Assembly (NCBI GenBank): GCA_021816745.1
Contig: JAKAWY010000003.1
Coordinates: 1-46,594, forward strand
Direction of reading: 5' to 3'
Source of the DNA: Thermoplasmata archaeon
Lineage (GTDB): Archaea > Thermoplasmatota > Thermoplasmata > Thermoplasmatales > Thermoplasmataceae
DNA: 46,594 nucleotides
This document shows positions 4,096-44,703 of this stretch, piece after piece. Position numbers and translations under genes: made by a program. Numbering within the stretch: the stretch's first letter is position 1; each line of letters begins with the position of its first letter. The notes below the pieces were generated by a model that had not been told where the DNA came from, did no database searches, and worked only from the letters and a program-made list of their open reading frames with translations.

Positions 4096-4710
4096 TTAGA
4101 ATATTCCTCTGGGCCTTAGTTCACTCATTCCACCATCAATGTTAGCCACATTAAAACCGCGATCTGAAAGAAACATCGTGATGTACATGCTCCTGTTACC
4201 ATGTTCACAAACTATGGCGTATCTCTTGCTCTTATCCAGTGTTTCGTATTTTGCGATAATATCATTCATGGGCATCAAAATTGCCTCTTCTATATGGCCT
4301 GTTGCCCATTCATATGGATCTCTGACATCTATGACGTTCCACTGGTCCCGCTGTTCAAGGTACTGATCAGGAGTCAGATTGGTTGCATGTGCTACCTTGA
4401 ATTTACCCTTTTCCAGAAAATCTTTGTAAATATAAATCTGAGGCTCTACTCCCCTGGACTTCAGGCTGCTGCTGATTTTTTCCGATATTTCAGGATTTAG
4501 TGCAAGAAAAACCAATTTTCTGCCTGCATTTTTTGCATAGGAAGCTATGTCATCAGGCCATCTTCTTTCATAAAAAGTCGCAAGAGCTGATTCAGGAATA
4601 TGAGATTCCATGTACTCCTCAAAGGAGCGAGTGTCCACAAGCTCTACTTTTCCTTCCTTAAACATTACAATATCTTCTTCTATGGACATCTTGATACCTC
4701 TACAAAACAT
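4096..4710 (-). CDS. rhodanese-domain sulfurtransferase (inactive N-terminal plus active C-terminal rhodanese domain)
   Basis: The C-terminal half has the rhodanese fold signature VIDVRDPYEWATGHI and an active-site Cys loop AIVCEHGNRSM. The true start may be the internal Met (MSIEEDIV, about 4689). Confidence 0.7.
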   Translation of the reverse strand: MFCRGIKMSIEEDIVMFKEGKVELVDTRSFEEYMESHIPESALATFYERRWPDDIASYAKNAGRKLVFLALNPEISEKISSSLKSRGVEPQIYIYKDFLEKGKFKVAHATNLTPDQYLEQRDQWNVIDVRDPYEWATGHIEEAILMPMNDIIAKYETLDKSKRYAIVCEHGNRSMYITMFLSDRGFNVANIDGGMSELRPRGIF

Positions 4711-4762
4711 GAATTAGACTTAACCTATTAATCTTTAATATGAAAAATTTGGTAAAATAGAT

Positions 4763-5773
4763 TCAATTCATTCCCCGATTCTGGATTTTCATATACATAC
4801 TGATAGAACTATTAGGGGACAGAAAATGGATTAAAAGTATAACACTGATGTAAAAACATTCTTTACACCCCTTACTGAAAAATAGATATAACATTTTCAA
4901 GGAAAATCCAATAGATCCCTTTCTTCCCCTGCTGTAGATAATGTTGTTGGCTAGCATTTTTCCTATTAAAATCTGATGAAATATCGCATAATTCGGATTC
5001 GCACTTTTAACTAAAGTTGAAAGTTTTTCCAAATTTTCAATGGATTCGTCAGTAAATTTCACCCTGGATGACAAAAACTGATCAACTGAACCAACAATTC
5101 CTGTAACACTCTGGTGTTTTCTATAATAAGTGAGGGGTATTTCAAGAACGCCAATCTTCCTTCCATAATCTACAGAAGCCATGAAAAGCGCCTTATCCAG
5201 ACTGCGTTCAATTTTTCTTATCTGTGGTGAGTATCTCTCTGCGACCTCTTTTCGCATTGAAATACATGAGACATACCAGTCAGCCCTGCTTGAAGTTATT
5301 TTTCCAGGTTTACTGATAACGGATTTTATAGAAAGATCATAAATGGTTATTCGACTTTCATGAAGGTCTATTCCATCCAAACTGGAATATTTAGAATCTT
5401 CAGAAATAGTATAGATGCCATTGTGAATGTATGCAAGATCCGGATCACTCATAAACAGGGAATAGATTCTTGAGAGTTTTTCAGGATGAAACATGTCATC
5501 ATCATCCATAAAACAGATGAAGCTACCAGAGGCGTTTTCCATACCAATGGCAAGTTTTACTCCGAAACTTTTCTCATCCGTGAACATTGTTTTTATTGAA
5601 TTACTGGACAAAAACGCGTCGATATCAGGATCCTGGAAATTTTTTACAACAATAATTTCAACTTGAAATTCATTTTTAAGTGATTGTCCAAGAATGGAAT
5701 TTATGGCATCTTTCAGGTATTTTTTTCTGTCATGTGCCGTGATAATTACTGATACCGTATTTTCAGGATTCAT
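4763..5773 (-). CDS. glycosyltransferase family 2 (GT-A fold)
   Basis: N-terminal VSVIITAHDRKKYLKDAINSIL resembles a GT2 nucleotide-binding start. Acidic DxD-type motif FMDDDDMFHPEKL. Overlaps the next GT gene by a few nt, consistent with an operon. Confidence 0.75.
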   Translation of the reverse strand: MNPENTVSVIITAHDRKKYLKDAINSILGQSLKNEFQVEIIVVKNFQDPDIDAFLSSNSIKTMFTDEKSFGVKLAIGMENASGSFICFMDDDDMFHPEKLSRIYSLFMSDPDLAYIHNGIYTISEDSKYSSLDGIDLHESRITIYDLSIKSVISKPGKITSSRADWYVSCISMRKEVAERYSPQIRKIERSLDKALFMASVDYGRKIGVLEIPLTYYRKHQSVTGIVGSVDQFLSSRVKFTDESIENLEKLSTLVKSANPNYAIFHQILIGKMLANNIIYSRGRKGSIGFSLKMLYLFFSKGCKECFYISVILLIHFLSPNSSISMYMKIQNRGMN

Positions 5774-6845
5774 AGACTTCCATTATCCTCCGCATGACGT
5801 TTTCAGTGGAAAATCTTTTAATAAGAGACTCCCTGATTTTATTCAGCTCCAAATCTACCTTATAATTATCCACTGCTTCTCTCATGGTGGCAGCTGAATT
5901 CACTATCTTAACTATACCCTCTCTGCCTAATTCTCCCGATATTCCAATGTCTGTACAAATTACTCTGGCCCCTGAATAAGCAGCCTCCACCATGGCGACT
6001 CCAAAGGACTCAAACCTGGATGCAAAGAGGAATGCATTTGAATTTGCCATAAGAGTATACAGATCGTTTTCTGGTACATTTCCCAAAAATTTGATCTCAA
6101 CGCTATTATCCAGGCCCGTTTGCCTTATGGAATTTTCATATCCTTTGTCAGGGGTATTTCCGGTTAGCAACAGTGGCATCCCGGTTCCTTTTATGGCCCT
6201 GACGATAAATTCAATATTTTTGTTTTTCTGAAGCCCTCCCGAATGAATGAAATAGTTGTTCTTTGCAACTGAATATTTTGTTAAAGTTTCTTCAGGATTT
6301 TCATTTATCACAATTTTGTGAAAATCCACAGGATCAGGCACTACATCTATTTTTTTCGACAATGAAGGAGAAATTTTTTCAGTTATGGCTTTTTCATATT
6401 CTGTAAGGCAGATAATCCTGTCAAACTTGTCAAGGAAAGAAGGCATAAACTGATTATAATACAGTGAATTCGCAATGCCTCCGTAAATCATCTGATAGAA
6501 TCCATGTGCTGTAAATATTTTCTTTCCATGAAGATCCTTCAGGTGCCAGTAAAGGTAATCAGAGCTCCAAACTCTTTGACCATGAATATGAAATATATCA
6601 GAATCAGTGGAAGATAGATCCTTCCAGTAAGAAGATGGTGGAAATCTGAACTTCCCTACCCTCTTTAAGGAAATGCCATGGTAATGTATTCGATCAGTGT
6701 CCTTAAGGGAAGAAAGATCTCCATGGTCTGAAAAAACATGCACTTCATGACCCAGGGATGCTGCGCTCTCCACTGAGGATCGCACCACTTTCTCTGTTCC
6801 ACCTGTATGCGGATAGTAATGATGACTTGTATACGATATCTTCAT
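5763..6845 (-). CDS. glycosyltransferase family 4 (GT-B fold)
   Basis: C-terminal FASRFESFGVAMVEAAYSGARVICTD matches the E-x7-E motif of retaining GT4 enzymes. 4-nt overlap with the upstream epimerase gene. Confidence 0.8.
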   Translation of the reverse strand: MKISYTSHHYYPHTGGTEKVVRSSVESAASLGHEVHVFSDHGDLSSLKDTDRIHYHGISLKRVGKFRFPPSSYWKDLSSTDSDIFHIHGQRVWSSDYLYWHLKDLHGKKIFTAHGFYQMIYGGIANSLYYNQFMPSFLDKFDRIICLTEYEKAITEKISPSLSKKIDVVPDPVDFHKIVINENPEETLTKYSVAKNNYFIHSGGLQKNKNIEFIVRAIKGTGMPLLLTGNTPDKGYENSIRQTGLDNSVEIKFLGNVPENDLYTLMANSNAFLFASRFESFGVAMVEAAYSGARVICTDIGISGELGREGIVKIVNSAATMREAVDNYKVDLELNKIRESLIKRFSTENVMRRIMEVYES

Positions 6846-7615
6846 TTCAATTCACTTTCTAGCTTTTTAAGAATATTTCTGATGCCTTCCTCCAATGGGA
6901 TTGGATTCTCAACCGGAGAATTTTTAGCCACAAGTTTATCGGCCTCTTCAAGGATAAAGGGCTTTTCTTCAATTTCGATCTTTTTTCCGCTTATTTGCTC
7001 CACCATCTGGATTAGTTGATTTACCGAAACTCCTTTTCCTGTCCCAAGCTCATAATCACCAGGTGTGAGTTTCCCGTTAACTACCTTTATTACAGCTTTA
7101 GACAGGTCACTAACATTCAGGTAATCTCTGACATGTGTACCATCACCAAACCTGATTGCCTTTTCACCAGTCAGGGCTGCCTTAGAGAAAAGATAAACTG
7201 CACCTTTCCTGGCATTGGTTCCATAGATGTTGAAAAGCCTGAATATGGTTGCCCTGGTTCCGTATAAATTTCTGTAAAGATTTATCCATTCAGTTCCATG
7301 TTTTTTTGACATGGAATAAGCATTGCTGGGTTCTGCAGTCGATCCGGACGACGGGAATAAAAACATTGCATCTGTTTTTCTTGCCAGTTCCAGGCATTTC
7401 ATTGTAAGGGCCAGTCCATCCTCAAAGTATTCATACGGGTGGTTCAGGGAATTTCTGATCAGGGTTCTTGCACCGAAATGAAGGATTGCATCAAATTTAA
7501 TTTCCGGTATCTTATCACCAATATCAACACCAACAGGGGCATATCCTGCTTTTTGCAGATCTTCCATTAGTTGCGTTCCAATAAATCCTTTGCTGCCTGT
7601 GACCAGGATATTCAT
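6842..7615 (-). CDS. NAD-dependent epimerase/dehydratase (SDR family)
   Basis: Rossmann motif ILVTGSKGFIGTQL (GxxGxxG) at the N-terminus and catalytic YxxxK (YSMSK). The start is taken at the internal Met (MNILVTG) rather than the ORF-track Met 21 nt upstream. Confidence 0.8.
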   Translation of the reverse strand: MNILVTGSKGFIGTQLMEDLQKAGYAPVGVDIGDKIPEIKFDAILHFGARTLIRNSLNHPYEYFEDGLALTMKCLELARKTDAMFLFPSSGSTAEPSNAYSMSKKHGTEWINLYRNLYGTRATIFRLFNIYGTNARKGAVYLFSKAALTGEKAIRFGDGTHVRDYLNVSDLSKAVIKVVNGKLTPGDYELGTGKGVSVNQLIQMVEQISGKKIEIEEKPFILEEADKLVAKNSPVENPIPLEEGIRNILKKLESELK

Positions 7616-7654
7616 GCCACATAATCGGCAACACAAAATTAAATATTTTCAATG

Positions 7655-8836
7655 TCACTTTTTTTCCACGTGACCTAAGTAAAAGGAATCAACAAATTTA
7701 AAAAATTTTTCATTGACACTCTCAGAGTTGTAATTGTTCCTGAAGAATTCTATCCTTCTGGATTTTTCAATTCTCAGGGAATCAATGGACTCCATTGCAG
7801 TTTTCAGGGATAGTGAAACTTCCTCAGGGGTGCTCTTTATGAATTTCATTATTCTTTCTTTTTCAGCATCAATAAATGAAGATCTTATCACACGCCCGGA
7901 AATGACAAAGCATCCAGCTGACATTGCTTCAAGAACTGTATAAGGAAAAGAATCCCAAAGTGTAGGGTAAATGAAAATATCTGCATTACAGTATTCACGC
8001 TTTAAATCCTCGTCACTGAGTTTGCCCATGAACTGTATACCGTAGGGGGCAAGGTCAAGTGGTTTGTATGATCCTGTTCCCACTATTTTAAGGGATGCAC
8101 TCCCCGATATTCCGGACATCTTCCATCCCTGAATAAGCACCTCTATTCCCTTTATGGTCTCAAGCCTTCCCACATAAAGGAATTTTACGTTCCCCTGATT
8201 GGATGGGGCGTTGCATACAATTTCCGGGGATCCATTGGGGAGCTTAAGGATGGTGGCCTTTCTTCCAAGAATGCCTGAAAGGCTATCTCTTCCAGGATAA
8301 ACATGAAATGCTCCAATACCTCTGTAAATAAGTCCTGCAGCATAGAGCCTTGCTTTCATCATGCTGACTAATCCCTGATCATGAAATTCAGTATGTGAAG
8401 AGCCAATCATTTTCTCTCCCTTGAATAATCTCCAGTATTGATTTTTAGTCAGATAAACTACGTCCAGGGATTCTTTATTCAATTTTTTTTTGTAAAAAGG
8501 TGAAAATAATAAAACAAGGAATGGAATAAAGATGATATCGAGAATGAAGGATAAAATACGGCTTTTCCTGAAAAATCTGAGATTATTTTCTATAAGGTCA
8601 AGTTTTACTGAATGAAATTTTAAAAGGTAATCTGCCTCCTTTTCCAGTCTCTTCTGATCTGAAAAATTTGTGCTGATAATAGAAATTTCAACATTATCAG
8701 GAACGTTATGGAGCGTGTTAATGAGCCATCTCTCCACTCCTCCACCCATGGAAGGATCCGTGATTAGATGAAATCCCATCCTGGTGGCTGTTTGAACCAT
8801 GGAAAGACAATATGGAATTGTATATATAGATAACAA
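7655..8836 (-). CDS. glycosyltransferase family 4 (GT-B fold)
   Basis: IYPTLWDSFPYTVLEAMSAGCFVISG matches the GT4 EX7E region. First gene of the minus-strand glycosylation operon. Confidence 0.75.
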   Translation of the reverse strand: MLSIYTIPYCLSMVQTATRMGFHLITDPSMGGGVERWLINTLHNVPDNVEISIISTNFSDQKRLEKEADYLLKFHSVKLDLIENNLRFFRKSRILSFILDIIFIPFLVLLFSPFYKKKLNKESLDVVYLTKNQYWRLFKGEKMIGSSHTEFHDQGLVSMMKARLYAAGLIYRGIGAFHVYPGRDSLSGILGRKATILKLPNGSPEIVCNAPSNQGNVKFLYVGRLETIKGIEVLIQGWKMSGISGSASLKIVGTGSYKPLDLAPYGIQFMGKLSDEDLKREYCNADIFIYPTLWDSFPYTVLEAMSAGCFVISGRVIRSSFIDAEKERIMKFIKSTPEEVSLSLKTAMESIDSLRIEKSRRIEFFRNNYNSESVNEKFFKFVDSFYLGHVEKK

Positions 8837-8878
8837 TCAGCACTTCCGAATTGGCACTTTTATATTGTACTTTTAAAT

Positions 8879-10705
8879 GTGTTCATGGGGTTTATAGGAG
8901 GCATGAATTTCAAAGCAATTCACGGAAAGGAAATTTTTAAAAAATGTGTTTCAATATTCAATGACAGATACACACTTATTTCTTTGATTATCGCCATGAT
9001 TTTTGCCATAATTTACAGTTATATCTCAATTATGAGGTATCTGGCCCTCACTCAGAATGTGCTTGATTTAGGGGTAAGTTCAAATCTTCTGTATTCTGTC
9101 ACTCACGGGGGCCTCTTTCCCACTGCACTTAATCCAAGGCCTCTGGTTCCTGCAAAATTAATTTACATTCCCATGGGTTTTATTTACTCTCTCTATCCGC
9201 ACGAATGGTCCTTATTGATTTACCAGGATTTCTTTCTGTCACTTTCACCCATAGCGCTTTACTTCATTGGTCGGGAATTAGGCTTTGGTAAACGAATGTC
9301 CCTGGGGTTTGAGGTACTTTATTTTCTTTATTATCCTTTAAGTGGTGTATACTGGTTTGATTTCCATTTCATGGCGTTTTTCCCCACACCTTTCCTTTTC
9401 GGTATTCTGATGTATCTTCGAAGCAACAGAAACTGGATTCCACTGTTATTCATAGCGTCAATCACTGATTATATGGCACCAGTGCTTGTCGGGTGGTTCC
9501 TGATGATTGAAATGGTGAAGTCGTTCAGGAAAACAGGGATGAAGTCCAGGCTGTTCAATGAGATTATCATGTATATACTGATGGTTATATTGTTCCTGGT
9601 GCCAACCCTCTATGGAGGCAGGCCATACTACTCAAATTATATGTCCGTACAAAATTCTAGTGGATTATATCTTACAGATACCCTGAAATACGATTTTATT
9701 TTACGTGTGCTTCTTCCAGTTCTGTTCATTCCTCTGGTCGCATTTGAGTATTTAAGCATGCTGATACCATACTGTCTTTTTATTATTTTTAACAACTATG
9801 CGCCATACCAGAATTTAATGTTCTTCCAATACGGTGCTCTTTACACCCCGGTTGTGATGTTTTCCTTATTGGTCGGACTTTCAAGAATTATGGGAAAACT
9901 GGAAATGAAGTGGGGAGCTAAGAAAAGTAAAATTTCAATTAAGGGTATAGTGTGTGCAGTCATTGTGGTAAATATGGTCATGTTCACCCTATACACTCCA
10001 ATTGGTGCATCTTATAACGGACATCTTGCAAAGGAGTACGTAAACCCATCTTTGACAGGCTCTGCACAGTATTATGAATTTTTCCAGAAGATCACGCCTC
10101 AACCTTACGATGCAGCCATAATGAAAATGATGGATAAAATACCAAAAGGTTCTTCTGTTTTCGTCCAGGGAAATCTTCCGGAACTTTGCCAGGGATACAA
10201 CGCCAGCGTTACAATACAAAGCCTTTCCCATCCACCAGAATATTTTGTGGATGATCCTTATAATTACCAGTTTTACAACATAATTCCATACCCAGTGGCC
10301 GGTTTCAAAAATATCTCATTCCTCCAGGCGACAAATATTCTTTTGAATACAAACAATTATGGATTAGTGGACTCATATCAGGGCGCATCTCTGTATGAGC
10401 TGGGTTATTCAGGCACTGCATCCAGTTTTACTCCATTGGATTACAATTTTTCCACGCAGAATCCAAATTCAAATGTGGAAATTCAGTTTTTAGCACCAGG
10501 AAATTATAATGTTTCCATAAGCAATTCCACCGGGGGGAATTTGAGCCTGATCATTGGAAATTCAACACTACATCCAGTCGGCCAATTAAATGGAACTTAC
10601 TTTTTTACTTATACAACTGCTTTTTACGAAAGCAATGTACGGATGTCCATACAGGGCTCAGGTCATTCCACCATCTTAATCAATTTAGTACAGGGGGAAT
10701 TATAA
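8879..10705 (+). CDS. large polytopic membrane protein, sequon-rich C-terminal extracytoplasmic domain (possible GT-C-type glycosyltransferase)
   Basis: 608 aa. About 10 hydrophobic helices in the first ~330 aa, with an acidic loop motif VLDLGVSSN after the first helix. The soluble C-terminal ~250 aa carries many N-x-S/T sequons (NASV, NISF, NFST, NVSISNSTGGNLSLIIGNSTL, NGTY). Divergent from the GT operon. Confidence 0.55.
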   Translation: MFMGFIGGMNFKAIHGKEIFKKCVSIFNDRYTLISLIIAMIFAIIYSYISIMRYLALTQNVLDLGVSSNLLYSVTHGGLFPTALNPRPLVPAKLIYIPMGFIYSLYPHEWSLLIYQDFFLSLSPIALYFIGRELGFGKRMSLGFEVLYFLYYPLSGVYWFDFHFMAFFPTPFLFGILMYLRSNRNWIPLLFIASITDYMAPVLVGWFLMIEMVKSFRKTGMKSRLFNEIIMYILMVILFLVPTLYGGRPYYSNYMSVQNSSGLYLTDTLKYDFILRVLLPVLFIPLVAFEYLSMLIPYCLFIIFNNYAPYQNLMFFQYGALYTPVVMFSLLVGLSRIMGKLEMKWGAKKSKISIKGIVCAVIVVNMVMFTLYTPIGASYNGHLAKEYVNPSLTGSAQYYEFFQKITPQPYDAAIMKMMDKIPKGSSVFVQGNLPELCQGYNASVTIQSLSHPPEYFVDDPYNYQFYNIIPYPVAGFKNISFLQATNILLNTNNYGLVDSYQGASLYELGYSGTASSFTPLDYNFSTQNPNSNVEIQFLAPGNYNVSISNSTGGNLSLIIGNSTLHPVGQLNGTYFFTYTTAFYESNVRMSIQGSGHSTILINLVQGEL

Positions 10706-12409
10706 TTGGATCACAAATGGAATGAGTCAAAGGAAGTTGTGGAAAGGCTTGGGTTTCTTGCACTAGGTGCTGTGATTCTGATTCTTCCCAATGGGCTCTA
10801 TTCAGACACAGGCTACACGTCTTTCCCTTCAATAATACTGGAACTTTTCGCATATATTGTCGGGTTCCTGATTATACTCTATGCACTCATATCCCCCAAT
10901 TCAAAAAAGGATAACGGGAATAGACTTGTATTCATCATGCTGGCCTCCATGGGTACAGTGACTCTCCTGTATTTCTTCTATGGAATAGCGGTTAAACATA
11001 GTGTTACGGATGAAACTTTCATCGATATGACAGCTGCAAAAAATTTCCTTGCAATGATTAACCCATACGGGTTCCGCATTCCAATCTCCACATTTAATCA
11101 GAATGGTGTACCGCTTTCTTATCTTACCCCAACTCTTGCAGGTGGATTCGTAAATACACTGGGATACCCCTCCCTGTCATTCCTGATGCTTGTTCCTATG
11201 GTGTTATTGCATCTGAATCCTGTATTGTTGACGGTTCTGTTCTCATCTCTTCTTCTCTTTACTATCGGTCTGAGGTACATGAAAAGCAGTGTCAGATATG
11301 CTTCTCCTTTGGCTATATCGATTTCACTCCTGAATCTTAACGTGATATTCTTTTCACTGAACGGGATAAATGACGTAGTCTGGGCAGAATTTTTGGCGTT
11401 GTCTATTATTTTTATCAATAGAAAATATGCTGGAGGTCTGTTTTTTGGGCTTTCCCTTGCATATAAACAGGTACCTGTCTTCCTGATGCCCTTCTTTATG
11501 GTTTATTTGCTTAAAACACACGGGTGGAAGAGAATGTTACAGTTTGTTTTTTCATCCATTGTTACATTTCTTATATTCAATCTGCCATTTATCATATGGT
11601 CTCCTTCCACTTATTTCTCTGCAGTGCTGTCACCAGAAAGCACCTCCCTTTTAGGAATTGGCTTTGGGCCTTCCCAACTGGCATTTGCAGGATATCTTCC
11701 ATTTGTAGGTGAAAAAGTTTTCCAGTATACAGAAGTGGCAGTTTTTATAATTCTTATTCTTCTTTATTATATAAATTTCCAGAAGTTGAAATATGTCATG
11801 ACTGCACTTCCACTCATCTTTTTCCTGTTTAATTACAGGCTTCTGGAGAATTATGTCCTTTTCTGGCCGATCCTTTCCCTACTGATTATTCCACAGATTA
11901 TTGAAGATCATGATGCAAATCCTGAACCTCGGACTGTGGAAAATAAAAATGTAATGAAAATCTTTACAGACAGGAGGAAAACGGTAATATCTGCTGCTTT
12001 GGTTATCCTGCTTGTTCTGGTTCCCATATCCGCTTCTATGGTAAGCATGGAATCCTACAACCCTTCTTTTACAATTATATCTGTTTCCGGGAAAACCACT
12101 ACTACTGAACTCCAGAGCATGACAGTGGAAGTTCAAATGAAATCCCCTGTAAGCAATGGCACGTATAATTTCCGTGTCCTGACAGGTGGCCCCCTCTTTT
12201 TCCCAAACGGGTATCTGTGGAATGTCACATCTCTAAAATATATGCCAGGTAACACCGTGAAATTCCACATTCAATCATACAATTCCACCCAGGGAATCGT
12301 AAAAGGCAAAAGTTACATCCTCGAGATATACTCTGTTAATTCGTCAGGATGGATTGAATTTGTTTACAACGGCAATAATGTGTCATTTAACAATGTTCAA
12401 TGGTACTGA
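10706..12409 (+). CDS. second large polytopic membrane protein with sequon-rich C-terminal domain (possible GT-C-type glycosyltransferase)
   Basis: 567 aa. Starts with TTG immediately after the stop of the previous gene, suggesting translational coupling. Multi-helix N-terminal region; the C-terminal ~150 aa has NGTY, NVTS, NSTQ, NSSG and NVSFNN sequons. Confidence 0.5.
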   Translation: MDHKWNESKEVVERLGFLALGAVILILPNGLYSDTGYTSFPSIILELFAYIVGFLIILYALISPNSKKDNGNRLVFIMLASMGTVTLLYFFYGIAVKHSVTDETFIDMTAAKNFLAMINPYGFRIPISTFNQNGVPLSYLTPTLAGGFVNTLGYPSLSFLMLVPMVLLHLNPVLLTVLFSSLLLFTIGLRYMKSSVRYASPLAISISLLNLNVIFFSLNGINDVVWAEFLALSIIFINRKYAGGLFFGLSLAYKQVPVFLMPFFMVYLLKTHGWKRMLQFVFSSIVTFLIFNLPFIIWSPSTYFSAVLSPESTSLLGIGFGPSQLAFAGYLPFVGEKVFQYTEVAVFIILILLYYINFQKLKYVMTALPLIFFLFNYRLLENYVLFWPILSLLIIPQIIEDHDANPEPRTVENKNVMKIFTDRRKTVISAALVILLVLVPISASMVSMESYNPSFTIISVSGKTTTTELQSMTVEVQMKSPVSNGTYNFRVLTGGPLFFPNGYLWNVTSLKYMPGNTVKFHIQSYNSTQGIVKGKSYILEIYSVNSSGWIEFVYNGNNVSFNNVQWY

Positions 12410-12574
12410 TTTTTTAAAAATATTTAAAGAGAATTGATCGAGTGTATAGACAATATTTCTTATTTTTAGAATTTTTTAAACTAAAACCGATTCTATATAA
12501 ATAAAATTGAAAGGTTTATTAATAGTGGTTTTACAAAGTGTAGACATTAGACAGACACACCCGGTAAAAAAACC

Positions 12575-12590
12575 AAATGTTTATATACAG
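12575..12590 (+). promoter_or_regulatory. archaeal TATA-box candidate for the 12609 gene
   Basis: TTTATATA at 12580..12587, about 25 nt upstream of the ATG at 12609, fitting a leaderless archaeal promoter geometry. Confidence 0.4.
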
Positions 12591-12608
12591 CTAAAATAAT
12601 ACTACACT

Positions 12609-13007
12609 ATGATCCCGGATGCCAAGGACATTAAAATTACACTTAGGATATCAGAGGAGGATTTGGATCAGATCGATTCCTTCCTTGAAGAAAATCCAAA
12701 ACACGGTAACAGATCAGAATTTTTAAGGAATTGTGCACTGGATTCCATTTCAAGGATAAAAAATTTTAAGGGCGATGGCCAGGCAGGCCCAAAATTCACT
12801 GATCGCGAAAACATGATCATGGAAAAAATGATCGACATGGGATACTATTACAACATGGATGACGTAGTCAGATCCATAGTGGATTATTGTTTTGATACAG
12901 GCGTAATAAAAGCAATTTTTGAGGACAAAATAAACAGGTTCAACCAGATAGAGAACTCCATCTCAAGGGGTTTCAGCATCAGGGAAGAGAAAGTTGGGAG
13001 GTTATGA
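12609..13007 (+). CDS. ribbon-helix-helix (RHH)-like DNA-binding protein with C-terminal extension
   Basis: The N-terminus KITLRISEEDLDQIDSFLEENPKHGNRSEFLRNCALDSI has the beta-strand/helix/helix pattern of Arc/MetJ/CopG-type RHH regulators. 132 aa. Confidence 0.45.
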   Translation: MIPDAKDIKITLRISEEDLDQIDSFLEENPKHGNRSEFLRNCALDSISRIKNFKGDGQAGPKFTDRENMIMEKMIDMGYYYNMDDVVRSIVDYCFDTGVIKAIFEDKINRFNQIENSISRGFSIREEKVGRL

Positions 13008-13762
13008 AATTGGAAGTTAGTGAAAGAGTCCGCGAAAGTAGCAGGAGCATACCATATCAGATGGATCCCTCAGCTATATTCAGCATATATAACGGAATGT
13101 CCATCCTGGTTCTTGGAAACAAAATGGAGAACGTTTTCAGGAAATTGACCGAGAAGGTAAAATCTGGTGAACTCAATACCAGGACTGGAATTTACTTTGT
13201 CAGGGATGTCCAGACAAATTCATTCTCCAGCAGGGGCCCCATAAGGGGATATATGAGCACATCCAAGAACGATCTTTACAGGGAGAGTGAAATGATCACG
13301 CTTCTTAACGAAGATGGAACTGAAATGGATGAAGAAATTGAGGAGATCAAAAACCCTGATGTAAAGATCATGGCCCTGGAGGACATCGTTTCAGATTCAG
13401 ATTTCAGGAAAGGAGCTGAACTGGTTGCAGGACTGGTGGACAGAACATGTGCAACCATCATTGTGAGTGACTTTGATGATGACTTCGCAAGAAAGATTCA
13501 CGCTTCGCTGGTTACCAAGATACCTGTGACAAGAGAGGCTACTGCATCCTTTGTCATAAGGAACAGGGACATTTCAAAATCCAACGTAGAGGCCATAACC
13601 CTGATCAACAGCATCAAGGCGCGTATGGACAATTTCATGGTCATCGAAAAGAAGAGCCTCATGACCAGAATACCTGTTATGGAGAACGCCAGGGAAGAAC
13701 TGGAAGTCAAAATTATTAAAAACGTAGTGGATTTCATGGACCAGGTTCCTAGCCTGGTCTGA
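13004..13762 (+). CDS. hypothetical acidic protein, co-transcribed with the RHH gene
   Basis: 252-aa ORF whose start overlaps the upstream stop by 4 nt (ATGA). No recognisable motif. Acidic segments (EDGTEMDEEIEEIKNPD, DFDDDF). Confidence 0.45.
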   Translation: MKLEVSERVRESSRSIPYQMDPSAIFSIYNGMSILVLGNKMENVFRKLTEKVKSGELNTRTGIYFVRDVQTNSFSSRGPIRGYMSTSKNDLYRESEMITLLNEDGTEMDEEIEEIKNPDVKIMALEDIVSDSDFRKGAELVAGLVDRTCATIIVSDFDDDFARKIHASLVTKIPVTREATASFVIRNRDISKSNVEAITLINSIKARMDNFMVIEKKSLMTRIPVMENAREELEVKIIKNVVDFMDQVPSLV

Positions 13763-16096: not shown

Positions 16097-17215
16097 TCAA
16101 GATGACTGGATTACTGCGTCATATACCTCTTTTCTCATAATCTCAGGTTCAGGGATCCTTTTTTCCGAGAAGATAGATCTCACCATGGTTCCGCTGAATC
16201 TTTTCCTGTCTTTTTCAGGGTGCGGGCAGATGGTTTCATCAGTTATTTCAGCACAGGATTTGCAGTGGAATGCTTCATTCATGTATATGGGGGTTATGCC
16301 AAGTTTTTCTATTCCTGAAACATATTTCCATGCATCGTAGGGCCCATAGAAGTTTCCCACCCCTGCATGATCCCTGCCAATAATGAAGTGTGTGCATCCA
16401 AGATTCTTCCTGATTATGGCGTGCATCAGTGCCTCCCTGGGGCCAGCGTATTCCATAACATAGTTAAGAGGATGCAGTACAGTTCTCTCAGAAGGAAGAT
16501 AGTTGGATATGTAGGCCTCATAACCATTTACAATCTGTTTATCGTTGAAATCCCCTGTTTTTTTCTGTCCGACCACAGGAGTCAGGATAAGTCCATTTGT
16601 TATTTTCAATGCCGATTTATGCAGATATTCATGTCCGCGGTGAGGCGGATTTCTGGTCTGGAATCCAGTGATGGTTTTGAATCCACGCTTTTGAAATTCA
16701 TCCCGTGTCATTGAAGGATCAATCTGGGGGTATTTCAGGAATTTATTGGCTCCTGATACCACCTTCAGTTCACCTCCAATAAAATGGTTTCCTGATTCAA
16801 GAGTTCTCCTTACTCCCGGGTGCTCTAAGCTGGCTGTTCCAAAAACATTCCTTGAGTATTTTTCCAGATCCAGGGTATATTTTTCATTAACATTCATAAT
16901 AGCCAAAATGTAATTGTTGAAGTTGAGCGAAACATCATCACCCTCCCTGATATTTCTGTATTCTTCCTCACACAATGGAAAAAGGACAGGTATTGACCAT
17001 GGTGTGCCATCCTGCAATGCAGAATTATTGATAATTGAATCAACTTCTGAACTCAAACTAAATCCTTTCAATGGACTGAAAAGGCCTTTACCAATACTTT
17101 CAACCCTGACCATCTGGTTTTCATCCAGTTTTAAATTAATTTGTGGCGTATCCTCTATGAGACTTTCTGAACCCTGGATGTAAGTCCTCTTTCCTCCATG
17201 ATATTTAGTTTCCAT
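16097..17215 (-). CDS. sat: sulfate adenylyltransferase (ATP sulfurylase)
   Basis: QTRNPPHRGHEYL and GRDHAGVG signature motifs plus an N-terminal YHGG. The start is moved to the internal Met (METKYHGG) so the gene no longer overlaps cysH by ~100 nt; a 5-nt gap remains. Confidence 0.85.
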   Translation of the reverse strand: METKYHGGKRTYIQGSESLIEDTPQINLKLDENQMVRVESIGKGLFSPLKGFSLSSEVDSIINNSALQDGTPWSIPVLFPLCEEEYRNIREGDDVSLNFNNYILAIMNVNEKYTLDLEKYSRNVFGTASLEHPGVRRTLESGNHFIGGELKVVSGANKFLKYPQIDPSMTRDEFQKRGFKTITGFQTRNPPHRGHEYLHKSALKITNGLILTPVVGQKKTGDFNDKQIVNGYEAYISNYLPSERTVLHPLNYVMEYAGPREALMHAIIRKNLGCTHFIIGRDHAGVGNFYGPYDAWKYVSGIEKLGITPIYMNEAFHCKSCAEITDETICPHPEKDRKRFSGTMVRSIFSEKRIPEPEIMRKEVYDAVIQSS

Positions 17216-17912
17216 TATTTCTGGCCCCCGCTGTATTAAGATGAATCCCGCATTCTTTGCTTTCATTCTCCCACCACCACCTGCCATCCCTTTCACCCTC
17301 TCCCACATGAACGGGCCTGGTGCAGGGAAGACATCCTATACTTCTGTACCCTTTCGAATAAAGCTTATTTTCCTCTATCCCCCTGCTTCTTGTGAACTCC
17401 TGGACATCATTATAGGTCCAGTCAAGCAGGGGGTTGATTTTCACAATAGATCCTGTGTTTTCCAATTTTTTCGATCTTGCTCTCAGATTGGTCTGTTCTG
17501 ATCTGATCCCCGTAACCCATGCACTTCTCCCTTCTAAAATTAAATTCATAGGCTTCACTTTCCTCTCATTGCAACAGGCATGCCTCATTTCAGAACTTTG
17601 ATAAAACAGGTTGGGCCCATGGGCTGAAATCAGTTTGCTTAGTGATTCCTGGTCAGGATAAACCATCCTGATCTGAATTTCCATGGACTCTTTCACGTAC
17701 TGGATAAGATCATAAGTTTCCTGCGGCAATCTACCTGTGTCAAGAGTGTAAATATCAATTCCAATTTTATTTTTTTTAAGCAAGTTCAGGATAATCATGT
17801 CTTCCCTGGAAAAACTGCAGAGAAAAACCATTCCTGTTTCATACTCAATATACTGTTCAGAAAGCAGTGTTGAAGCTTCCATTTCCAGATTCCTTAGCCT
17901 GTCTTCAATCAT
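17205..17912 (-). CDS. cysH: APS/PAPS reductase (Fe-S type, CysH family)
   Basis: C-terminal KECGIH (ECGLH motif) plus the Cys pairs HACCN…SIGCLPCT. That pattern is characteristic of the [4Fe-4S] assimilatory APS reductases rather than cluster-free PAPS reductases. Confidence 0.8.
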   Translation of the reverse strand: MIEDRLRNLEMEASTLLSEQYIEYETGMVFLCSFSREDMIILNLLKKNKIGIDIYTLDTGRLPQETYDLIQYVKESMEIQIRMVYPDQESLSKLISAHGPNLFYQSSEMRHACCNERKVKPMNLILEGRSAWVTGIRSEQTNLRARSKKLENTGSIVKINPLLDWTYNDVQEFTRSRGIEENKLYSKGYRSIGCLPCTRPVHVGEGERDGRWWWENESKECGIHLNTAGARNNGN

Positions 17913-18019
17913 ATATATCCAGAAGTTAAATGTGATTTATTTACATATTTAAAGAGGTAATAGGCACAATATTTGCATATATTTCGCATAATTTATATGC
18001 TTTAATAATATGCCAATAA

Positions 18020-19009
18020 ATGGATGGAAACCATCTTTTTTGTGAAGATATAGCCCAAATACCCAAGACTATGGAAAAGCGTAAGGCAGTGACAATGGTT
18101 ATTGATCGATTATCCTATGATCCTTCATTATTGGATGATATTGGTGTTTATGCCACTTATGTGAAAATGGGGTGGGGGCTTTCATTTCTTTTGCAGGAGA
18201 AAGTCCTGGCAAACAGGATCAACAGGTACAAAGGATTAGGGCTGGGAGTTTCAAACGGAGGCACCTTCCTTGAAAAATGCTACCTGATGGGTAAATTTGA
18301 TGATGCATTGGAAAGGCTATACCGTGCAGGTTTTTCATGGCTTGAACTCAGTGAAGGGATAACGAACCTTCCAAGAAAATACAAGAAGAGTTTTACTGAT
18401 TTTGCAAATTCAAAAGGGTTGAATTTTGTGATGGAGGTAGGAAGGAAAAACCAGGGGAGCCAGCTCAGCCTCACTGAAACGCTTGAGGAAATTAGCCAGG
18501 CAATGGAATACGGGCCGTCTAAAATAATTATTGAGGGCAGGGAGACTGGTGTTGGAGTTGAGATATACGACATGGAGGGAAATATAAAATGGGACTGGGT
18601 ACAGGAAATTATATCGAATTATCCCATTGACATGATCATGTTTGAAGCACCACAGGAGAGGCAGCAGGTGGAGCTAATAACACACCTTGGCCCTGATATA
18701 AATCTTGGAAATATTTCCATGTCATCCCTTGCTGCATTGGCCAGCCAGAGGCTTGGCCTGAGGGGGGATACCTTTGGCATTGAAATTTCCACCGGTAATC
18801 TTTCTGCAAGTCCAGCTACTAAGTTTGTCTATCACGTCATTAAAAATTCCATATCTACAGATCAAACACTAATTATGAAAATTACAGGACTGGAAAGAAG
18901 GACTGTGCAGAATTCCATTAAGGAATTGATGGAAAATGGATGGATAGTGGAAAGATCAGATCCAAGGGATATGAGAAGAAAAATTTACGCACAGAAAAGA
19001 AAACCATGA
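18020..19009 (+). CDS. (2R)-phospho-3-sulfolactate synthase (ComA family) fused to a C-terminal winged-helix domain
   Basis: ComA-like motifs along the first ~250 aa (VTMVIDR, KFDDALERL, KIIIEGRETG, IMFEAPQERQQVE, LRGDTFG). The last ~75 aa (KITGLERRTVQNSIKELMENGWIVERSDPRDMRRKIYA) look like a MarR/wHTH DNA-binding domain. Confidence 0.7.
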   Translation: MDGNHLFCEDIAQIPKTMEKRKAVTMVIDRLSYDPSLLDDIGVYATYVKMGWGLSFLLQEKVLANRINRYKGLGLGVSNGGTFLEKCYLMGKFDDALERLYRAGFSWLELSEGITNLPRKYKKSFTDFANSKGLNFVMEVGRKNQGSQLSLTETLEEISQAMEYGPSKIIIEGRETGVGVEIYDMEGNIKWDWVQEIISNYPIDMIMFEAPQERQQVELITHLGPDINLGNISMSSLAALASQRLGLRGDTFGIEISTGNLSASPATKFVYHVIKNSISTDQTLIMKITGLERRTVQNSIKELMENGWIVERSDPRDMRRKIYAQKRKP

Positions 19010-19047
19010 TTTTGCCTCAGATATAGGCTAAAACCTTTTGAGGCATT

Positions 19048-20754
19048 ATGGAATTGTTATTGGATATTATGCCTTCGGTTAATGTCTGTCTGGTGCATCC
19101 TCCCAGTATCTACGACTTCAGGAAGAGAGATCTCAGGGAGGGGCCCATCAGCGACGTTATTCCTTCTACTCCTGTTTTTGAAATGTATCCTGTGGGGTTC
19201 ATCAGTATGCTTTCCCACCTTGTGAAAAATGGATACAGGTGCAGGATCGCCAATGTTGCAGTTCAGATGCTTATGAACAGCAATTTTGATGTTGAAAAAT
19301 ACCTGGGAAATATCGAGGCAGACATTTTTGGAATAGATCTTCACTGGCTTCCTCACACACATGGTGCTTTCCAGATCGCCTCGATCATAAGAAAGGTCCA
19401 TCCGAATTCATATATCCTTCTGGGTGGCTATTCAGCTTCTTATTTCGCTGAAGATATAATGAAAAACAAGCAGGATATTGACTTTATCCTTGCAGGGGAT
19501 CTCATGGAAGAACAGATTCTGGCTCTGGCTTCACGGATTGAGCAGGGGAAATCGGTAGAAGATGTATCCAACCTTTTTTACAGAAAAGATGGAGCTATAA
19601 AAAAGAATCCAAGGAAATATGATAAAAATGCCATTGCAAATGTATACATGGACTACAAGGGACTGATTAAAAATGCAATTCAGTATCATGACATCAAGGG
19701 CCATCTACCTTATCTGGAATGGATCAGGAATCCCGTGGCCATGACTCTTATTCAGAGAGGTTGCCAGTACAACTGCGGGTTTTGTGGTGGTTCGTACTAT
19801 TCTTACAGCAGGAATTACGGTGGAAGTTCTCCCATAATCAGGGATATAAATACACTGGGTGAAGAGATGGAAGACATCATGGACACCATAGACACTCCAG
19901 TATTCATCGCGGGGGATCTGAATGCCATGGGGGAGAAATATTACAGATCATTTCTTGCTGAGTTGAAAAACAGGGGCATTGATCTTCCACTTTTGACAGA
20001 ATACTTCGTACCACCGCCTGAAAATTACTATGAGTTGCTGTCAAAATATGTTCCCGATTACGCCTGTGAAATTTCACCAGATTCACTGGATCAGAAAATC
20101 AGGATGAAAACAGGACGGGGGTATTCAAACAATGAGCTTGAAAAATCAATTTCGTTCGCATCAAAGTACGGTTCCAGGAAGTATGATGTATACCTGTCCA
20201 TAGGACTTCCGGAACAGGGGATTGAAAATGTAATGGATGATACAGATCGATTAAAGTCTTTAATGAAACAATTCTCTACTCCGGAAATGCCTGTTTATGG
20301 GTTTATTTCTCCCTTATCGCCATTCCTTGATCCTGGTTCTTTATTTTATGAGATGAGGGAGAAATTTGGTTATATCATCAGGGCTAAAAGTGTACAGGAA
20401 TATTATGAACTTCTGGATCATGGAAGAACATGGACTGATTTTCTAAATTATGAAACCAGTCGAATGAGCAGGGATGACATAGCCAGGGCAACTTACCTGT
20501 CAGGGATAAGAATGGTGGAAGCAGAAATATCACTGGGATATATGGATAGGGAGACTGGATATCAAATCATTATGAATATCCAAAGTTACATGAATGGCGA
20601 TGATTATGCTCCCCAGAGTGACAAGAGCAAGCACCTGACTTATCTGGTGAAGGAAATTGAATGGTCAAGAAAACATGGACTCAAAATGTATTCATTCATG
20701 GTATTCCTGTACTCTGTATATGAGGGAATCAGGAGAACTGTCATGTATGGGTAA
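19048..20754 (+). CDS. B12-binding-domain radical SAM enzyme (class B rSAM; candidate GDGT ring synthase-like or methyltransferase)
   Basis: Radical-SAM cluster motif QRGCQYNCGFCGG (C-x3-C-x2-C) mid-protein, preceded by an N-terminal Rossmann-like region (ILLGGYSASYF) typical of cobalamin-binding rSAMs. 568 aa. Confidence 0.7.
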   Translation: MELLLDIMPSVNVCLVHPPSIYDFRKRDLREGPISDVIPSTPVFEMYPVGFISMLSHLVKNGYRCRIANVAVQMLMNSNFDVEKYLGNIEADIFGIDLHWLPHTHGAFQIASIIRKVHPNSYILLGGYSASYFAEDIMKNKQDIDFILAGDLMEEQILALASRIEQGKSVEDVSNLFYRKDGAIKKNPRKYDKNAIANVYMDYKGLIKNAIQYHDIKGHLPYLEWIRNPVAMTLIQRGCQYNCGFCGGSYYSYSRNYGGSSPIIRDINTLGEEMEDIMDTIDTPVFIAGDLNAMGEKYYRSFLAELKNRGIDLPLLTEYFVPPPENYYELLSKYVPDYACEISPDSLDQKIRMKTGRGYSNNELEKSISFASKYGSRKYDVYLSIGLPEQGIENVMDDTDRLKSLMKQFSTPEMPVYGFISPLSPFLDPGSLFYEMREKFGYIIRAKSVQEYYELLDHGRTWTDFLNYETSRMSRDDIARATYLSGIRMVEAEISLGYMDRETGYQIIMNIQSYMNGDDYAPQSDKSKHLTYLVKEIEWSRKHGLKMYSFMVFLYSVYEGIRRTVMYG

Positions 20755-40745: not shown

Positions 40746-41390
40746 TCAAAATTTTAGAAAATTTTTTAAATTTTCTAGCATAGTTTTATAGTTGTTTACG
40801 TATTTTTCAACGTCAGTTAAAAGATTTTCTGAGTTATTTGGATAAATATCGTAAGCAAACCACGTTGACAGGAGTTTTATTGCAATTGGATATATCTTTA
40901 TTTTTAATAAGATGGCCATTAATAGAATTTCTTTTTGACTAAAAACAATTTTTATTATTGAAGGTTTTTCCAAATTTATTGTATATCTCTTTACCCATTT
41001 TGCTGTTTTTCTAACAAGATGATTTACAGAATCCTCATCTTGGTTTATGGAGTTTGCAATAAGAATCATTCTTCTAGTTGAACTCATTGGCAATAAGATA
41101 AAATAATTATTCTCCCACAAATATTGTGAAAGAGTCATAAGGGCAGTTCTTTTATTACCATCAACAAATGGATGTAATCTGATTGCCAATTCCAATAAAG
41201 ATGCACCCTTTTCATAAATATTATCATAAATCTCTATTCCGGAAATAATAAGATCAGGTTTCTTGGCAATTTCATCAATAAATCCTTCGTTTATTATGCC
41301 GGGCTCTGTATTAGAGTTCTCTTTGCTGACATAATACTCATGAATATTTATAATATCTTCTTTTTCTAACAATTTGCTCAAGAAAATCAA
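40746..41390 (-). CDS. Doc/Fic-family toxin-like protein
   Basis: Doc-type active-site motif HPFVDGNKRTA in a 214-aa ORF that starts with TTG. Lies in an AT-rich segment downstream of tRNA-Tyr. Confidence 0.7.
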   Translation of the reverse strand: MIFLSKLLEKEDIINIHEYYVSKENSNTEPGIINEGFIDEIAKKPDLIISGIEIYDNIYEKGASLLELAIRLHPFVDGNKRTALMTLSQYLWENNYFILLPMSSTRRMILIANSINQDEDSVNHLVRKTAKWVKRYTINLEKPSIIKIVFSQKEILLMAILLKIKIYPIAIKLLSTWFAYDIYPNNSENLLTDVEKYVNNYKTMLENLKNFLKF

Positions 41391-43263: not shown

Positions 43264-43923
43264 ATGCCAATGAATGAGAAAACATTCTACGCCATTATTT
43301 TAGCCATTGTCGTCGTAGGCGGCATAGGAATAGGAATAGCATATGAGCACCCAGCATCTGTTTCTTCAGGTTCTTCTGCAACACCAGGTCCTTACCACCT
43401 GACATTAGCAGTATTTCCACATCTGGTATACAATGCAACACAGACAAACGAACCCGCCTTCTTTGTAATCAGCAATGGAACTTTACAATCATCTGTCAAT
43501 ATTACAGTTCCATCGCATGTGTTGATTGATCTTACAATTATCGATTATGACTCAGGACCTGGAACAGGAACTCCCTCTTCATACCTCAACGTTACCGGTA
43601 CTGTCGGAAATGTAGTATATCTGACGAACAGAACACTTGCAACCGGTGGAACCACTGCTGTAGGAACTCAGAACATAACCGTTCTTGGAAACACCACCAT
43701 GAAGATTTCAACAATGTCAATCAATGATATTGCACACACCTTTACAGTTGGAGGGTTAGATGGAATTGGGCAGGATCTAAATATACCGGTTGGGCATGGT
43801 GTGGAATTTACACAGTTCTATGCTAACAATACGGGAAAATATATGTGGATGTGCCATGTTCCATGTGGTCCTGCTGCAATGTCCACCATGGGATGGATGA
43901 TGGGTAATTTCTACGTTAGCTAA
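43264..43923 (+). CDS. membrane-anchored cupredoxin-like copper protein (sulfocyanin-like / CuA-like)
   Basis: N-terminal anchor helix FYAIILAIVVVGGIGIGIAY. C-terminal Cu-site-like segment AHTFTV…MWMCHVPCGPAAMSTMGWMMG containing His, two Cys and Met residues. Many N-x-S/T sequons indicate an extracellular location. Confidence 0.5.
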   Translation: MPMNEKTFYAIILAIVVVGGIGIGIAYEHPASVSSGSSATPGPYHLTLAVFPHLVYNATQTNEPAFFVISNGTLQSSVNITVPSHVLIDLTIIDYDSGPGTGTPSSYLNVTGTVGNVVYLTNRTLATGGTTAVGTQNITVLGNTTMKISTMSINDIAHTFTVGGLDGIGQDLNIPVGHGVEFTQFYANNTGKYMWMCHVPCGPAAMSTMGWMMGNFYVS

Positions 43924-43938: not shown

Positions 43939-44694
43939 ATGAGTGAACCTAATAAGAATCAAGATTTGAATGCACCCAACAGTGCCTCCAGAAGAACCTT
44001 TTTAAAGGTTATGGCTGGCATTGGAATTGGTGCAGTCGCTGTTGGTCTTGGTCGTGGTGCTATACAAAACATTATTCCAGCAAGTGTAGGGGTATCTGGA
44101 TATCCCACACTCACTTTATATAAAAGTACAACTGGCACCCCACTTCAGATTTCTGATCTGACTGTCAATAATCCCGCAGCAGTAATATTCAGCTACCCAT
44201 TGCAGAATGAGCCCAATTTTATTTTAAGGCTTGGCGATTCTTCAAACAATGATGTTTCCTTAAATCCATACAAGGTTCAGATACCTGCCACAGGAGGAAC
44301 CTACACAGCACCGGGTGGAGTTGGCCCATATGGTTCAGTCATAGCATATAGCGCAGTATGCCAGCATCTTGGTGGAACCCCGCCGTCGATTCATTATTAC
44401 CCGCCAGGAACCACAATTCCAAATCACCCAGGACATTCCGGATCCAATAATACGGGGTTTATCAACTGCATATTACACGGAAGCACATACGATCCATTCA
44501 AGGGATGTTCAGTAGTTACTATTCCGACAAAATCACCACTACCAAGCGTTGTATTAGCGTATGATACCACAAAACAGACTTTTTCTGTCAGTTCGTTGGT
44601 TGGCCCGACCATACAAGGACATACAAGCAACTTAACGGGAGGGAGTCCATTGCCATCTTCCAGTTCCACAGAGGTTACCACGATTGCTGTCTGA
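43939..44694 (+). CDS. Tat-exported Rieske [2Fe-2S] protein
   Basis: Twin-arginine signal SRRTFLKVMAG. Rieske boxes CQHLGG and CILHGS (C-x-H … C-x-x-H) spaced 31 residues apart. Confidence 0.75.
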   Translation: MSEPNKNQDLNAPNSASRRTFLKVMAGIGIGAVAVGLGRGAIQNIIPASVGVSGYPTLTLYKSTTGTPLQISDLTVNNPAAVIFSYPLQNEPNFILRLGDSSNNDVSLNPYKVQIPATGGTYTAPGGVGPYGSVIAYSAVCQHLGGTPPSIHYYPPGTTIPNHPGHSGSNNTGFINCILHGSTYDPFKGCSVVTIPTKSPLPSVVLAYDTTKQTFSVSSLVGPTIQGHTSNLTGGSPLPSSSSTEVTTIAV

Positions 44695-44703
44695 GGTGTT
44701 CAA

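Follow-up and report, generated by a model that had tools for sequence, protein, structure and literature searches.

Which glycan could be assembled where an operon of cytoplasmic glycosyltransferases faces two large membrane proteins, and on which side of the membrane would the latter work? This question is raised by positions 4,096 to 12,409 of a 46,594-nucleotide DNA stretch of an acid-loving Thermoplasmata archaeon (assembly GCA_021816745.1, contig JAKAWY010000003.1), the whole length of which is called here the window. An initial annotation, made from the letters of the DNA, had described two GT4 genes, a GT2 gene, an epimerase gene and a rhodanese gene on the minus strand, diverging from the genes of two consecutive polytopic membrane proteins, and had taken them for a lipid-linked glycan assembly line. 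All seven open reading frames (ORFs) were recovered (Table 1), and their families agreed with this description according to the ORF list and to Pfam and NCBIfam profile matches, each of which was judged against the cutoff of its family. Our analysis indicates that the region is likely a conserved glycoconjugate-assembly cluster working on both faces of the membrane, and it is a plausible candidate for building the cell-surface glycans or the lipoglycan of Thermoplasmata archaea. The two membrane proteins are referred to by their length as the 608-aa protein, a member of the DUF2079 family, and the 567-aa protein.

Results

Fold and family of the membrane proteins

The expectation of GT-C-type transferases, for which DUF2079 and GT87 had been named among the families to be tried, was supported. 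The 608-aa protein reached 88.2 bits with Pfam DUF2079 (PF09852; cutoff 28.2) over residues 54-433, and the domain was present in 47 of 47 homologues found. Its AlphaFold model (predicted local distance difference test, pLDDT, 84.5; predicted template modelling score, pTM, 0.85) was compared by fold with solved enzymes, and the highest values were obtained with Pmt4 (16.3), Pmt2 (14.6), PglB (14.3), and ALG9 and ALG12 (both 13.4), followed by STT3B (13.2), ArnT (11.5), DPY19 (11.3), AftB (11.0) and AglB (10.6). The C-terminal part was modelled as an extracytoplasmic alpha/beta and beta-sandwich domain rich in N-x-S/T sequons. While the 608-aa protein shares the DUF2079 domain well above the cutoff, the Thermoplasmata subgroup adds this sequon-rich C-terminal domain of 200-270 aa, which is largely missing from the family members of about 470-500 aa.

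The 567-aa protein passed no Pfam threshold: GT87 (PF09594, gathering threshold) gave no match even at E-values up to 1, and ALG6/ALG8 (PF03155) was matched with 19.5 bits against a cutoff of 25, over the partial stretch of residues 176-298. GT87 was nevertheless matched directly by three of the 20 members of its close family (best E-value 6e-7), and the family profile was aligned to a Pfam-GT87 protein with 98.2% probability, which may point to a remote homology. The model (pLDDT 76.4, pTM 0.80) resembled most closely GPI mannosyltransferase I (21.4, at 17% identity), ALG3 (18.8), GAB1/PIG-U (18.1) and PimE (16.3), with lower values for ALG12 (14.7), ALG6 (14.5) and ArnT (14.2). Its nearest solved counterparts PimE (GT87), ALG3 (GT58) and PIG-M/Gpi14 (GT50) are mannosyltransferases dependent on polyprenyl-phosphate-mannose, to which it is only 13-17% identical; it differs from them by two extra N-terminal helices ahead of the core and, according to the model, by a late transmembrane helix that is followed by an immunoglobulin-like (Ig-like), sequon-rich C-terminal beta-sandwich as outer domain.

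The wider family of the 567-aa protein comprised 1,828 representatives in an exhaustive profile search at E-values up to 0.001; half of the ten representatives sampled matched GT87 or ALG3 around the threshold, and two carried C-terminal TPR repeats. As a separate observation, in these distant relatives (P0150 and P0225) a GT-C core is fused to the repeats, which recalls the TMTC-type O-mannosyltransferases. The two membrane proteins were tried as close paralogues of each other as well, and the profile-profile comparison was weak (54% probability). The suggestion that they represent uncharacterised GT-C families holds as far as experimental characterisation is concerned, but they are not new superfamilies, since DUF2079 is an existing Pfam family and the wider family of the 567-aa protein is as large as described above.

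In both proteins a polytopic N-terminal domain within the 8-13 helices of the GT-C superfamily, with the fold of the solved enzymes, was found, and hydropathy as well as the models placed about 11-13 helices ahead of an all-beta or alpha/beta domain, in line with the layout of helices and a C-terminal domain described originally. At the level of fold and motif, the data support the prediction that both are GT-C-fold glycosyltransferases. The opposite view would be that they are transporters, flippases or structural surface proteins, which stand beside a glycosyltransferase operon by chance and outside its pathway. Nothing positive was found for it apart from the lack of a sequence-level match to any solved structure, neither model had a transporter or non-glycosyltransferase fold, and we consider it very improbable.

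A different role might be assigned to the 608-aa protein, namely that of a PMT-like protein O-mannosyltransferase or an alternative oligosaccharyltransferase which glycosylates surface proteins directly. Pmt4, Pmt2 and PglB stand at the head of its fold comparison; the features of the PMT family (GT39), a PMT Pfam match and a lumenal loop with MIR domain, were not found in it. With the oligosaccharyltransferases STT3, AglB and PglB the similarity is confined to the fold: neither membrane protein matched the STT3 Pfam family or any NCBIfam model, the C-terminal domains are different, and the WWDxG motif occurred neither in these proteins nor in any frame of the window, which extends the absence of an AglB-type motif noted earlier. 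A direct protein-glycosylating role is thus judged improbable.

Conserved acidic residues and orientation in the membrane

It had been anticipated that the loss of the acidic first-loop residue typical of GT-C enzymes would speak against the assignment. Such a residue was present in both families: Asp63 (D63) was invariant in 32 DUF2079 homologues, in a V[FYL]DLG motif directly after the first transmembrane helix, and Asp102 (D102) did not vary among 20 close relatives of the 567-aa protein or among 35 diverse ones. In the models each belongs to the first extracytoplasmic loop, where it sits at the N-terminal tip of a juxtamembrane helix (residues 61-74 and 102-115, respectively), and each may be regarded as the putative catalytic Asp. 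The catalytic D58 of PimE, and the Asp of ALG6, ArnT and PglB, stand in the same kind of position, and K195 of PimE holds the donor phosphate (PMC12041525). The family of the 567-aa protein also has a conserved K254-Q255 pair, which was aligned to the KQ of a GT87 protein in the profile alignment, and keeps R378.

The predicted cytoplasmic loops carry clusters of Lys and Arg (residues 1-29, 181-185 and 220-224 of the 608-aa protein; residues 63-70, 236-241 and 405-421 of the 567-aa protein). Therefore, according to this positive-inside pattern, the Asp-bearing loops and the C-terminal domains are outside the cell. The C-terminal domains were indeed dense in sequons, as had been claimed: eight were counted in residues 381-608 of the 608-aa protein (3.5 per 100 aa) and five in residues 447-567 of the 567-aa protein (4.1 per 100 aa), compared with one in each membrane part (0.2-0.3 per 100 aa) and a mean of 0.41 per 100 aa in the 34 other ORFs of the window. 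The same distribution was observed in the homologues, with 3.2 sequons per 100 aa in the C-terminal domain versus 0.37 in the membrane part for 32 of them and 4.5 versus 0.25 for 20 others, of the 608-aa and the 567-aa protein, respectively. When the domains themselves were shuffled, the observed count was reached in a fraction of 0.01 for the 608-aa protein, a modest excess, and of 0.11 for the 567-aa protein, which is not significant; much of the excess is compositional, since N, S and T are abundant in the C-terminal domains. The outer location of these domains agrees with the sequon data.

Conservation of the cluster

The initial annotation had thought of a wall-less archaeon, and every homologue of both membrane proteins came from Thermoplasmata, including Cuniculiplasma, Caldiplasma, Ferroplasma, Thermoplasma volcanium and many metagenome-assembled genomes (MAGs) of acid environments. 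Identical database copies of the 567-aa protein are labelled 'Candidatus Thermoplasmatota archaeon', and within the species-representative genomes no relative comes closer than about 51% identity. The genome collection was scanned for relatives of the 567-aa protein by family-specific motifs.

The full block, in which GT2, GT4, epimerase and second GT-B genes diverge from those of the DUF2079 protein and the 567-aa homologue, was kept at three loci elsewhere. In one of them, on a metagenomic contig (L004), the six genes are 36-66% identical; in the others, which belong to two Thermoplasmata MAGs (L007 and L008), they are 51-78% identical, and the rhodanese gene and two downstream genes are also retained. 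Orthologues of the GT2 enzyme were found at the same position in L004, L001 and L007-L013 (35-52% identity) and those of the GT4 enzyme in L004, L007 and L008 (51-60%), while the epimerase is the best-conserved gene of the block (66-78%). The pair of DUF2079 and 567-aa homologues occurs in eight lineages (36-52%). DUF2079 genes of T. volcanium and other genomes adjoin epimerase and GT2/GT4 genes and Wzx-type flippases.

In Cuniculiplasma-type genomes and in L004 the pair is followed by a GT2 fused to GtrA_DPMS_TM and by a larger paralogue (about 760 aa) of the 567-aa protein with 27-30% identity; this extension lies at 7013-9331 of L001 and 11839-15141 of L004, and it is also present in L011-L013. 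More distant relatives of the 567-aa protein have the GT2-GtrA_DPMS_TM synthase immediately upstream, and in Ferroplasmaceae a GtrA-only gene stands there. Altogether, of the 23 related loci that could be assessed, 21 have one or the other of these genes next to that of the 567-aa homologue. The top NCBIfam matches of the relatives' synthases were PgfS, ArnC, AglJ, PpgS and the haloarchaeal dolichol-phosphate (Dol-P)-hexose transferase, all under the cutoff.

Downstream of the cluster, at 12609-13762, there are two genes with a 4-nt overlap: that of a ribbon-helix-helix protein (weak CdrS-like match, 4e-5) runs into the start of a 252-aa ORF for which there was no family match. Their synteny with the cluster extends to L007 and L008 (77% and 66% identity), and in L007 about 1.8 kb (11701-13520), holding a 464-aa minus-strand ORF, is inserted between the gene of the 567-aa homologue and that of the ribbon-helix-helix protein.

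Gene map and cytoplasmic enzymes

Table 1. Features of the cluster region, with positions in the window and the profile or model supporting each assignment
Feature	Positions	Strand	Basis
Tandem rhodanese-domain protein, 204 aa	4096-4710	-	PF00581 1e-25, two stretches
GT2 (GT-A fold) glycosyltransferase, 336 aa	4763-5773	-	PF00535 3e-15
GT4 (GT-B fold) glycosyltransferase, 360 aa	5763-6845	-	PF13439 1e-17 and PF00534 4e-16
Short NAD-dependent SDR sugar-nucleotide epimerase/dehydratase, 264 aa	6842-7636	-	PF01370 1e-28
Second GT-B glycosyltransferase, 393 aa as listed	7655-8836	-	PF13692 1e-17, PF00534 5e-15, C-terminal half only
Divergent AT-rich intergenic spacer, 84 bp	8801-8884	.	Putative TATA-like boxes toward both operons
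Predicted DUF2079-family GT-C-fold membrane glycosyltransferase, 608 aa	8879-10705	+	Pfam DUF2079 and model
Predicted divergent GT87/ALG3/PIG-M-like GT-C-fold membrane glycosyltransferase, 567 aa, TTG start	10706-12409	+	Model

Overlapping stops and starts had been described for the minus-strand genes. This was correct for two of the four junctions (GT2/GT4, 11 nt; GT4/epimerase, 4 nt), but at the remaining two the genes are 18 and 52 nt apart. Between the two membrane-protein genes there is no spacer (0 nt), and a GGGGGA stretch stands just 5' of the TTG start of the second one; database copies of the 608-aa protein begin at the ATG at 8885, which gives 606 aa. In the divergent spacer TATATATAG (8822-8830) and TTTATATT (8860-8867) each stand some 20-26 nt away from the closest ATG (at 8800 for the minus and at 8885 for the plus strand), and judged from the sequence they might be TATA-like boxes of the two operons, with the spacing expected for leaderless archaeal transcripts. 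A scan for bacterial-type promoters and terminators, a type of scan that is not applicable to archaea, returned fewer sites than in shuffled sequences.

The GT2 enzyme is predicted to act at the cytoplasmic face. Its NCBIfam matches (TuaG, PglI, AglG) were weak and sub-threshold. It was also considered as a Dol-P-sugar synthase and rejected in this role, as a GtrA/DPMS membrane domain and a match to a Dol-P-sugar synthase model are both lacking and none of its segments is hydrophobic enough to pass the threshold. The GT4 enzyme contains both the Glyco_transf_4 N-domain and the Glycos_transf_1 C-domain that define GT4, whereas the second GT-B enzyme matched C-domain families only; the top NCBIfam match of the former, Agl16, reached 65.7 bits against a cutoff of 575, and thus it is not an equivalog. 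The other named Agl and Pgl equivalogs (AglG, PglI, PglJ and PglH) were all far under their NCBIfam cutoffs.

The epimerase shows the motifs of the short-chain dehydrogenase/reductase (SDR) epimerase/dehydratase group, GxxGxxG as GSKGFIG and YxxxK as YSMSK. It was matched by GalE (TIGR01179, 5e-25) under the cutoff, and the alternative of a UDP-sulfoquinovose synthase was dismissed (19 bits against a cutoff of 575). The protein is unusually short, about 45 residues under the model length, and the ATG at 7615 is its likely true start. For the second GT-B enzyme the true start is likely the ATG at 8800 or 8779; its L004 orthologue has 370 aa, and the alignment begins at residue 20. The N-terminal half of this enzyme, which has no Pfam match, includes one strongly hydrophobic helix (residues 94-112, hydropathy peak 2.64), which suggests that it may be membrane-anchored.

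The top NCBIfam match of the rhodanese was 'rhoda_near_glyco' (47 bits, cutoff 145). As a part of the system it was rejected: its synteny is limited to L007 and L008, the closest relatives (63-65% identity), and it is missing from the otherwise conserved L004. It is a neighbour of the cluster, and its tie to glycosylation is doubtful.

The rest of the window is devoted to unrelated metabolism. About 4 kb from the cluster (16097-20754) there are genes for ATP sulfurylase, 3'-phosphoadenosine 5'-phosphosulfate (PAPS) reductase, a ComA phosphosulfolactate synthase fused to a helix-turn-helix domain and a B12-binding radical SAM (S-adenosylmethionine) enzyme. N-glycans with a sulfosugar have been reported for Thermoplasma, and a link of these sulfur genes to glycan sulfonation is conceivable. 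Between 40001 and 44000 the GC content is 0.31-0.35, compared with about 0.40-0.48 elsewhere, and this part, which contains a Fic/DOC-family gene (40746-41390) and ORFs for which there was no family match, may be foreign DNA. The 219-aa ORF at 43264-43923, which had no Pfam match, has eight sequons (3.65 per 100 aa), a density like that of the outer domains of the GT-C proteins; genes for a Rieske protein and cytochrome b follow immediately downstream (43939-46329), and the ORF may code for an outer subunit of a respiratory complex that is glycosylated.

Discussion

The coupling of a GT-C pair to a four-gene cytoplasmic operon suggests that a pre-assembled glycan is extended, and not that single sugars are used for decoration. 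In the proposed model the epimerase would supply an epimerised nucleotide sugar at the cytoplasmic face, where the two GT-B enzymes and the GT2 enzyme could assemble a short glycan, attached either to a lipid carrier of the membrane or to a lipid acceptor. The lipid-borne intermediate would then be flipped by a flippase encoded elsewhere than at the cluster, and at the outer face both GT-C enzymes might extend it with Dol-P-hexose donors, as the behaviour of their families and the gene neighbourhoods of the relatives would imply. For the 567-aa protein the donor is most probably Dol-P-mannose, and the acceptor is most probably lipid-linked, like those of its nearest structural relatives PIG-M, ALG3 and PimE.

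The final product could be either a lipid-linked N-glycan precursor or a membrane lipoglycan or glycolipid, and we lean slightly towards a lipid-linked, mannose-rich glycan. One possibility is an agl-type N-glycan variant, where the cytoplasmic enzymes would build a dolichol-linked N-glycan and the GT-C pair would add late sugars outside, on the flipped lipid-linked oligosaccharide or on the protein-bound glycan. The Agl16 match of the GT4 enzyme, the AglG and PglI matches of the GT2 enzyme and the AglJ and haloarchaeal Dol-P-hexose transferase matches of the synthases in relatives all point in this direction, although every Agl score was far under the equivalog cutoff. There is an archaeal precedent in AglS, the Dol-P-Man mannosyltransferase of Haloferax which acts after flipping (PMC4973528). 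Thermoplasma surface proteins are reported to be N-glycosylated, and the outer domains of the GT-C proteins themselves are rich in sequons. The window, however, contains neither an aglB gene nor a WWDxG motif, and the closest structural relatives of the 567-aa protein use acceptors that are linked to lipid and not to protein. We hold the N-glycan variant as a tentative possibility, on the doubtful side.

The other possibility is that a mannose-rich oligosaccharide is formed on the tetraether lipids of Thermoplasmatales, in parallel with the mycobacterial phosphatidylinositol mannoside (PIM)/lipomannan (LM) pathway. The top structural matches of the 567-aa protein (GPI mannosyltransferase I, ALG3 and PimE) are all dependent on polyprenyl-P-Man and act on lipid-anchored glycans (PMC12041525), and two GT4-type enzymes with a GT-C enzyme correspond to a PIM-like set, in which GT4 enzymes work inside and a PimE/Mpt-type GT-C enzyme uses polyprenyl-P-mannose outside. 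In the relatives a single cluster with two paralogues and a Dol-P-sugar synthase is what would be expected for several linkages. Furthermore, the close family of the 567-aa protein was found only in Thermoplasmata, a group with a glucose and mannose tetraether lipoglycan (PMC12448462). This restriction is partly built in, because the scan used family-specific motifs, and it is the close family, not the wider superfamily with its about 1,800 representatives, that has been placed taxonomically; the lipoglycan, moreover, is documented for Thermoplasma, and the present organism would have to make it too. To a lipoglycan or glycolipid product we give appreciable, though less than even, credence.

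Several observations weigh against the proposed two-sided assembly cluster. Searches of PDB chains with both proteins, by single sequence and by family profile, returned nothing real (an antibody light chain, the sphingosine-1-phosphate (S1P) receptor, myomaker and NuoJ at E-values of at least 0.04), and because of this the tie to the solved GT-C enzymes comes from the fold comparison only. The catalytic equivalence of D63 and D102 depends on their position in the models and on one profile alignment. The literature search returned no paper mentioning DUF2079 or PF09852 and no experiment on any DUF2079 protein or on any close relative of the 567-aa protein. No gene of the cluster reaches an NCBIfam equivalog cutoff, and hence the sugar specificities are not readable from the family. 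No Dol-P-sugar synthase, GtrA, flippase or AglB was found in the window or in the loci of its closest relatives L007 and L008, from which the paralogue of the 567-aa protein is also missing, and tblastn with the synthase and GtrA proteins of the relatives gave nothing in the window; since these loci carry no such genes, donor supply and acceptor are deduced from other genomes.

The general scheme has well-known counterparts. In the eukaryotic ALG pathway and in the mycobacterial synthesis of PIM, LM and lipoarabinomannan (LAM), GT-B and GT-A enzymes likewise use nucleotide sugars, and GT-C enzymes on the far side use lipid-phosphate sugars; this correspondence follows from family behaviour, while for the present cluster the sequence of steps would be extrapolated, as would its carrier, flippase and product, and no oligosaccharyltransferase is linked. 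Multi-component transmembrane glycosylation, which combines a GtrB/CsbB-type GT-A synthase, a GtrA flippase and a GT-C enzyme (PMC8035078), has the same three-function logic as most of the Thermoplasmata relatives, where the 567-aa homologue is paired with the GT2-GtrA_DPMS_TM fusion or with a GtrA-only gene, whereas the window has no linked synthase or GtrA gene. The pairing of synthase and GT-C enzyme in the relatives also follows a logic like that of AglD, AglR and AglS in Haloferax (PMC4973528). Since this two-compartment logic is already well known, the finding is useful rather than surprising.

Most Thermoplasmatales appear to have no canonical S-layer (PMC12448462), and to survive in hot acid they depend on a tetraether lipoglycan as well as on surface proteins that are glycosylated. 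Our literature search found no assignment of lipoglycan genes and no paper tying the Thermoplasma lipoglycan to a mannosyltransferase. The cluster offers candidates in the form of a conserved outer-face GT-C pair with the predicted catalytic residues D63 and D102, and of cytoplasmic enzymes which probably feed this pair. It might even be speculated that the cluster and the two genes added to it in Cuniculiplasma-type relatives, those of the extra paralogue and of the Dol-P-sugar synthase, are the machinery for the mannose-rich tetraether lipoglycan of Thermoplasmatales, an archaeal counterpart of PIM/lipomannan synthesis, which we regard as rather unlikely at present. If it were true, this would be the first function assigned to DUF2079, and few prokaryotic families would be related more closely than that of the 567-aa protein to the eukaryotic lumenal mannosyltransferases PIG-M and ALG3, which have been described as eukaryote-specific (PMC4973528). 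The wide occurrence in Thermoplasmata of predicted PIG-M/ALG3/PimE-like enzymes with a fused Ig-like outer domain is relevant to the question of how the lumenal glycosyltransferases of eukaryotes arose.

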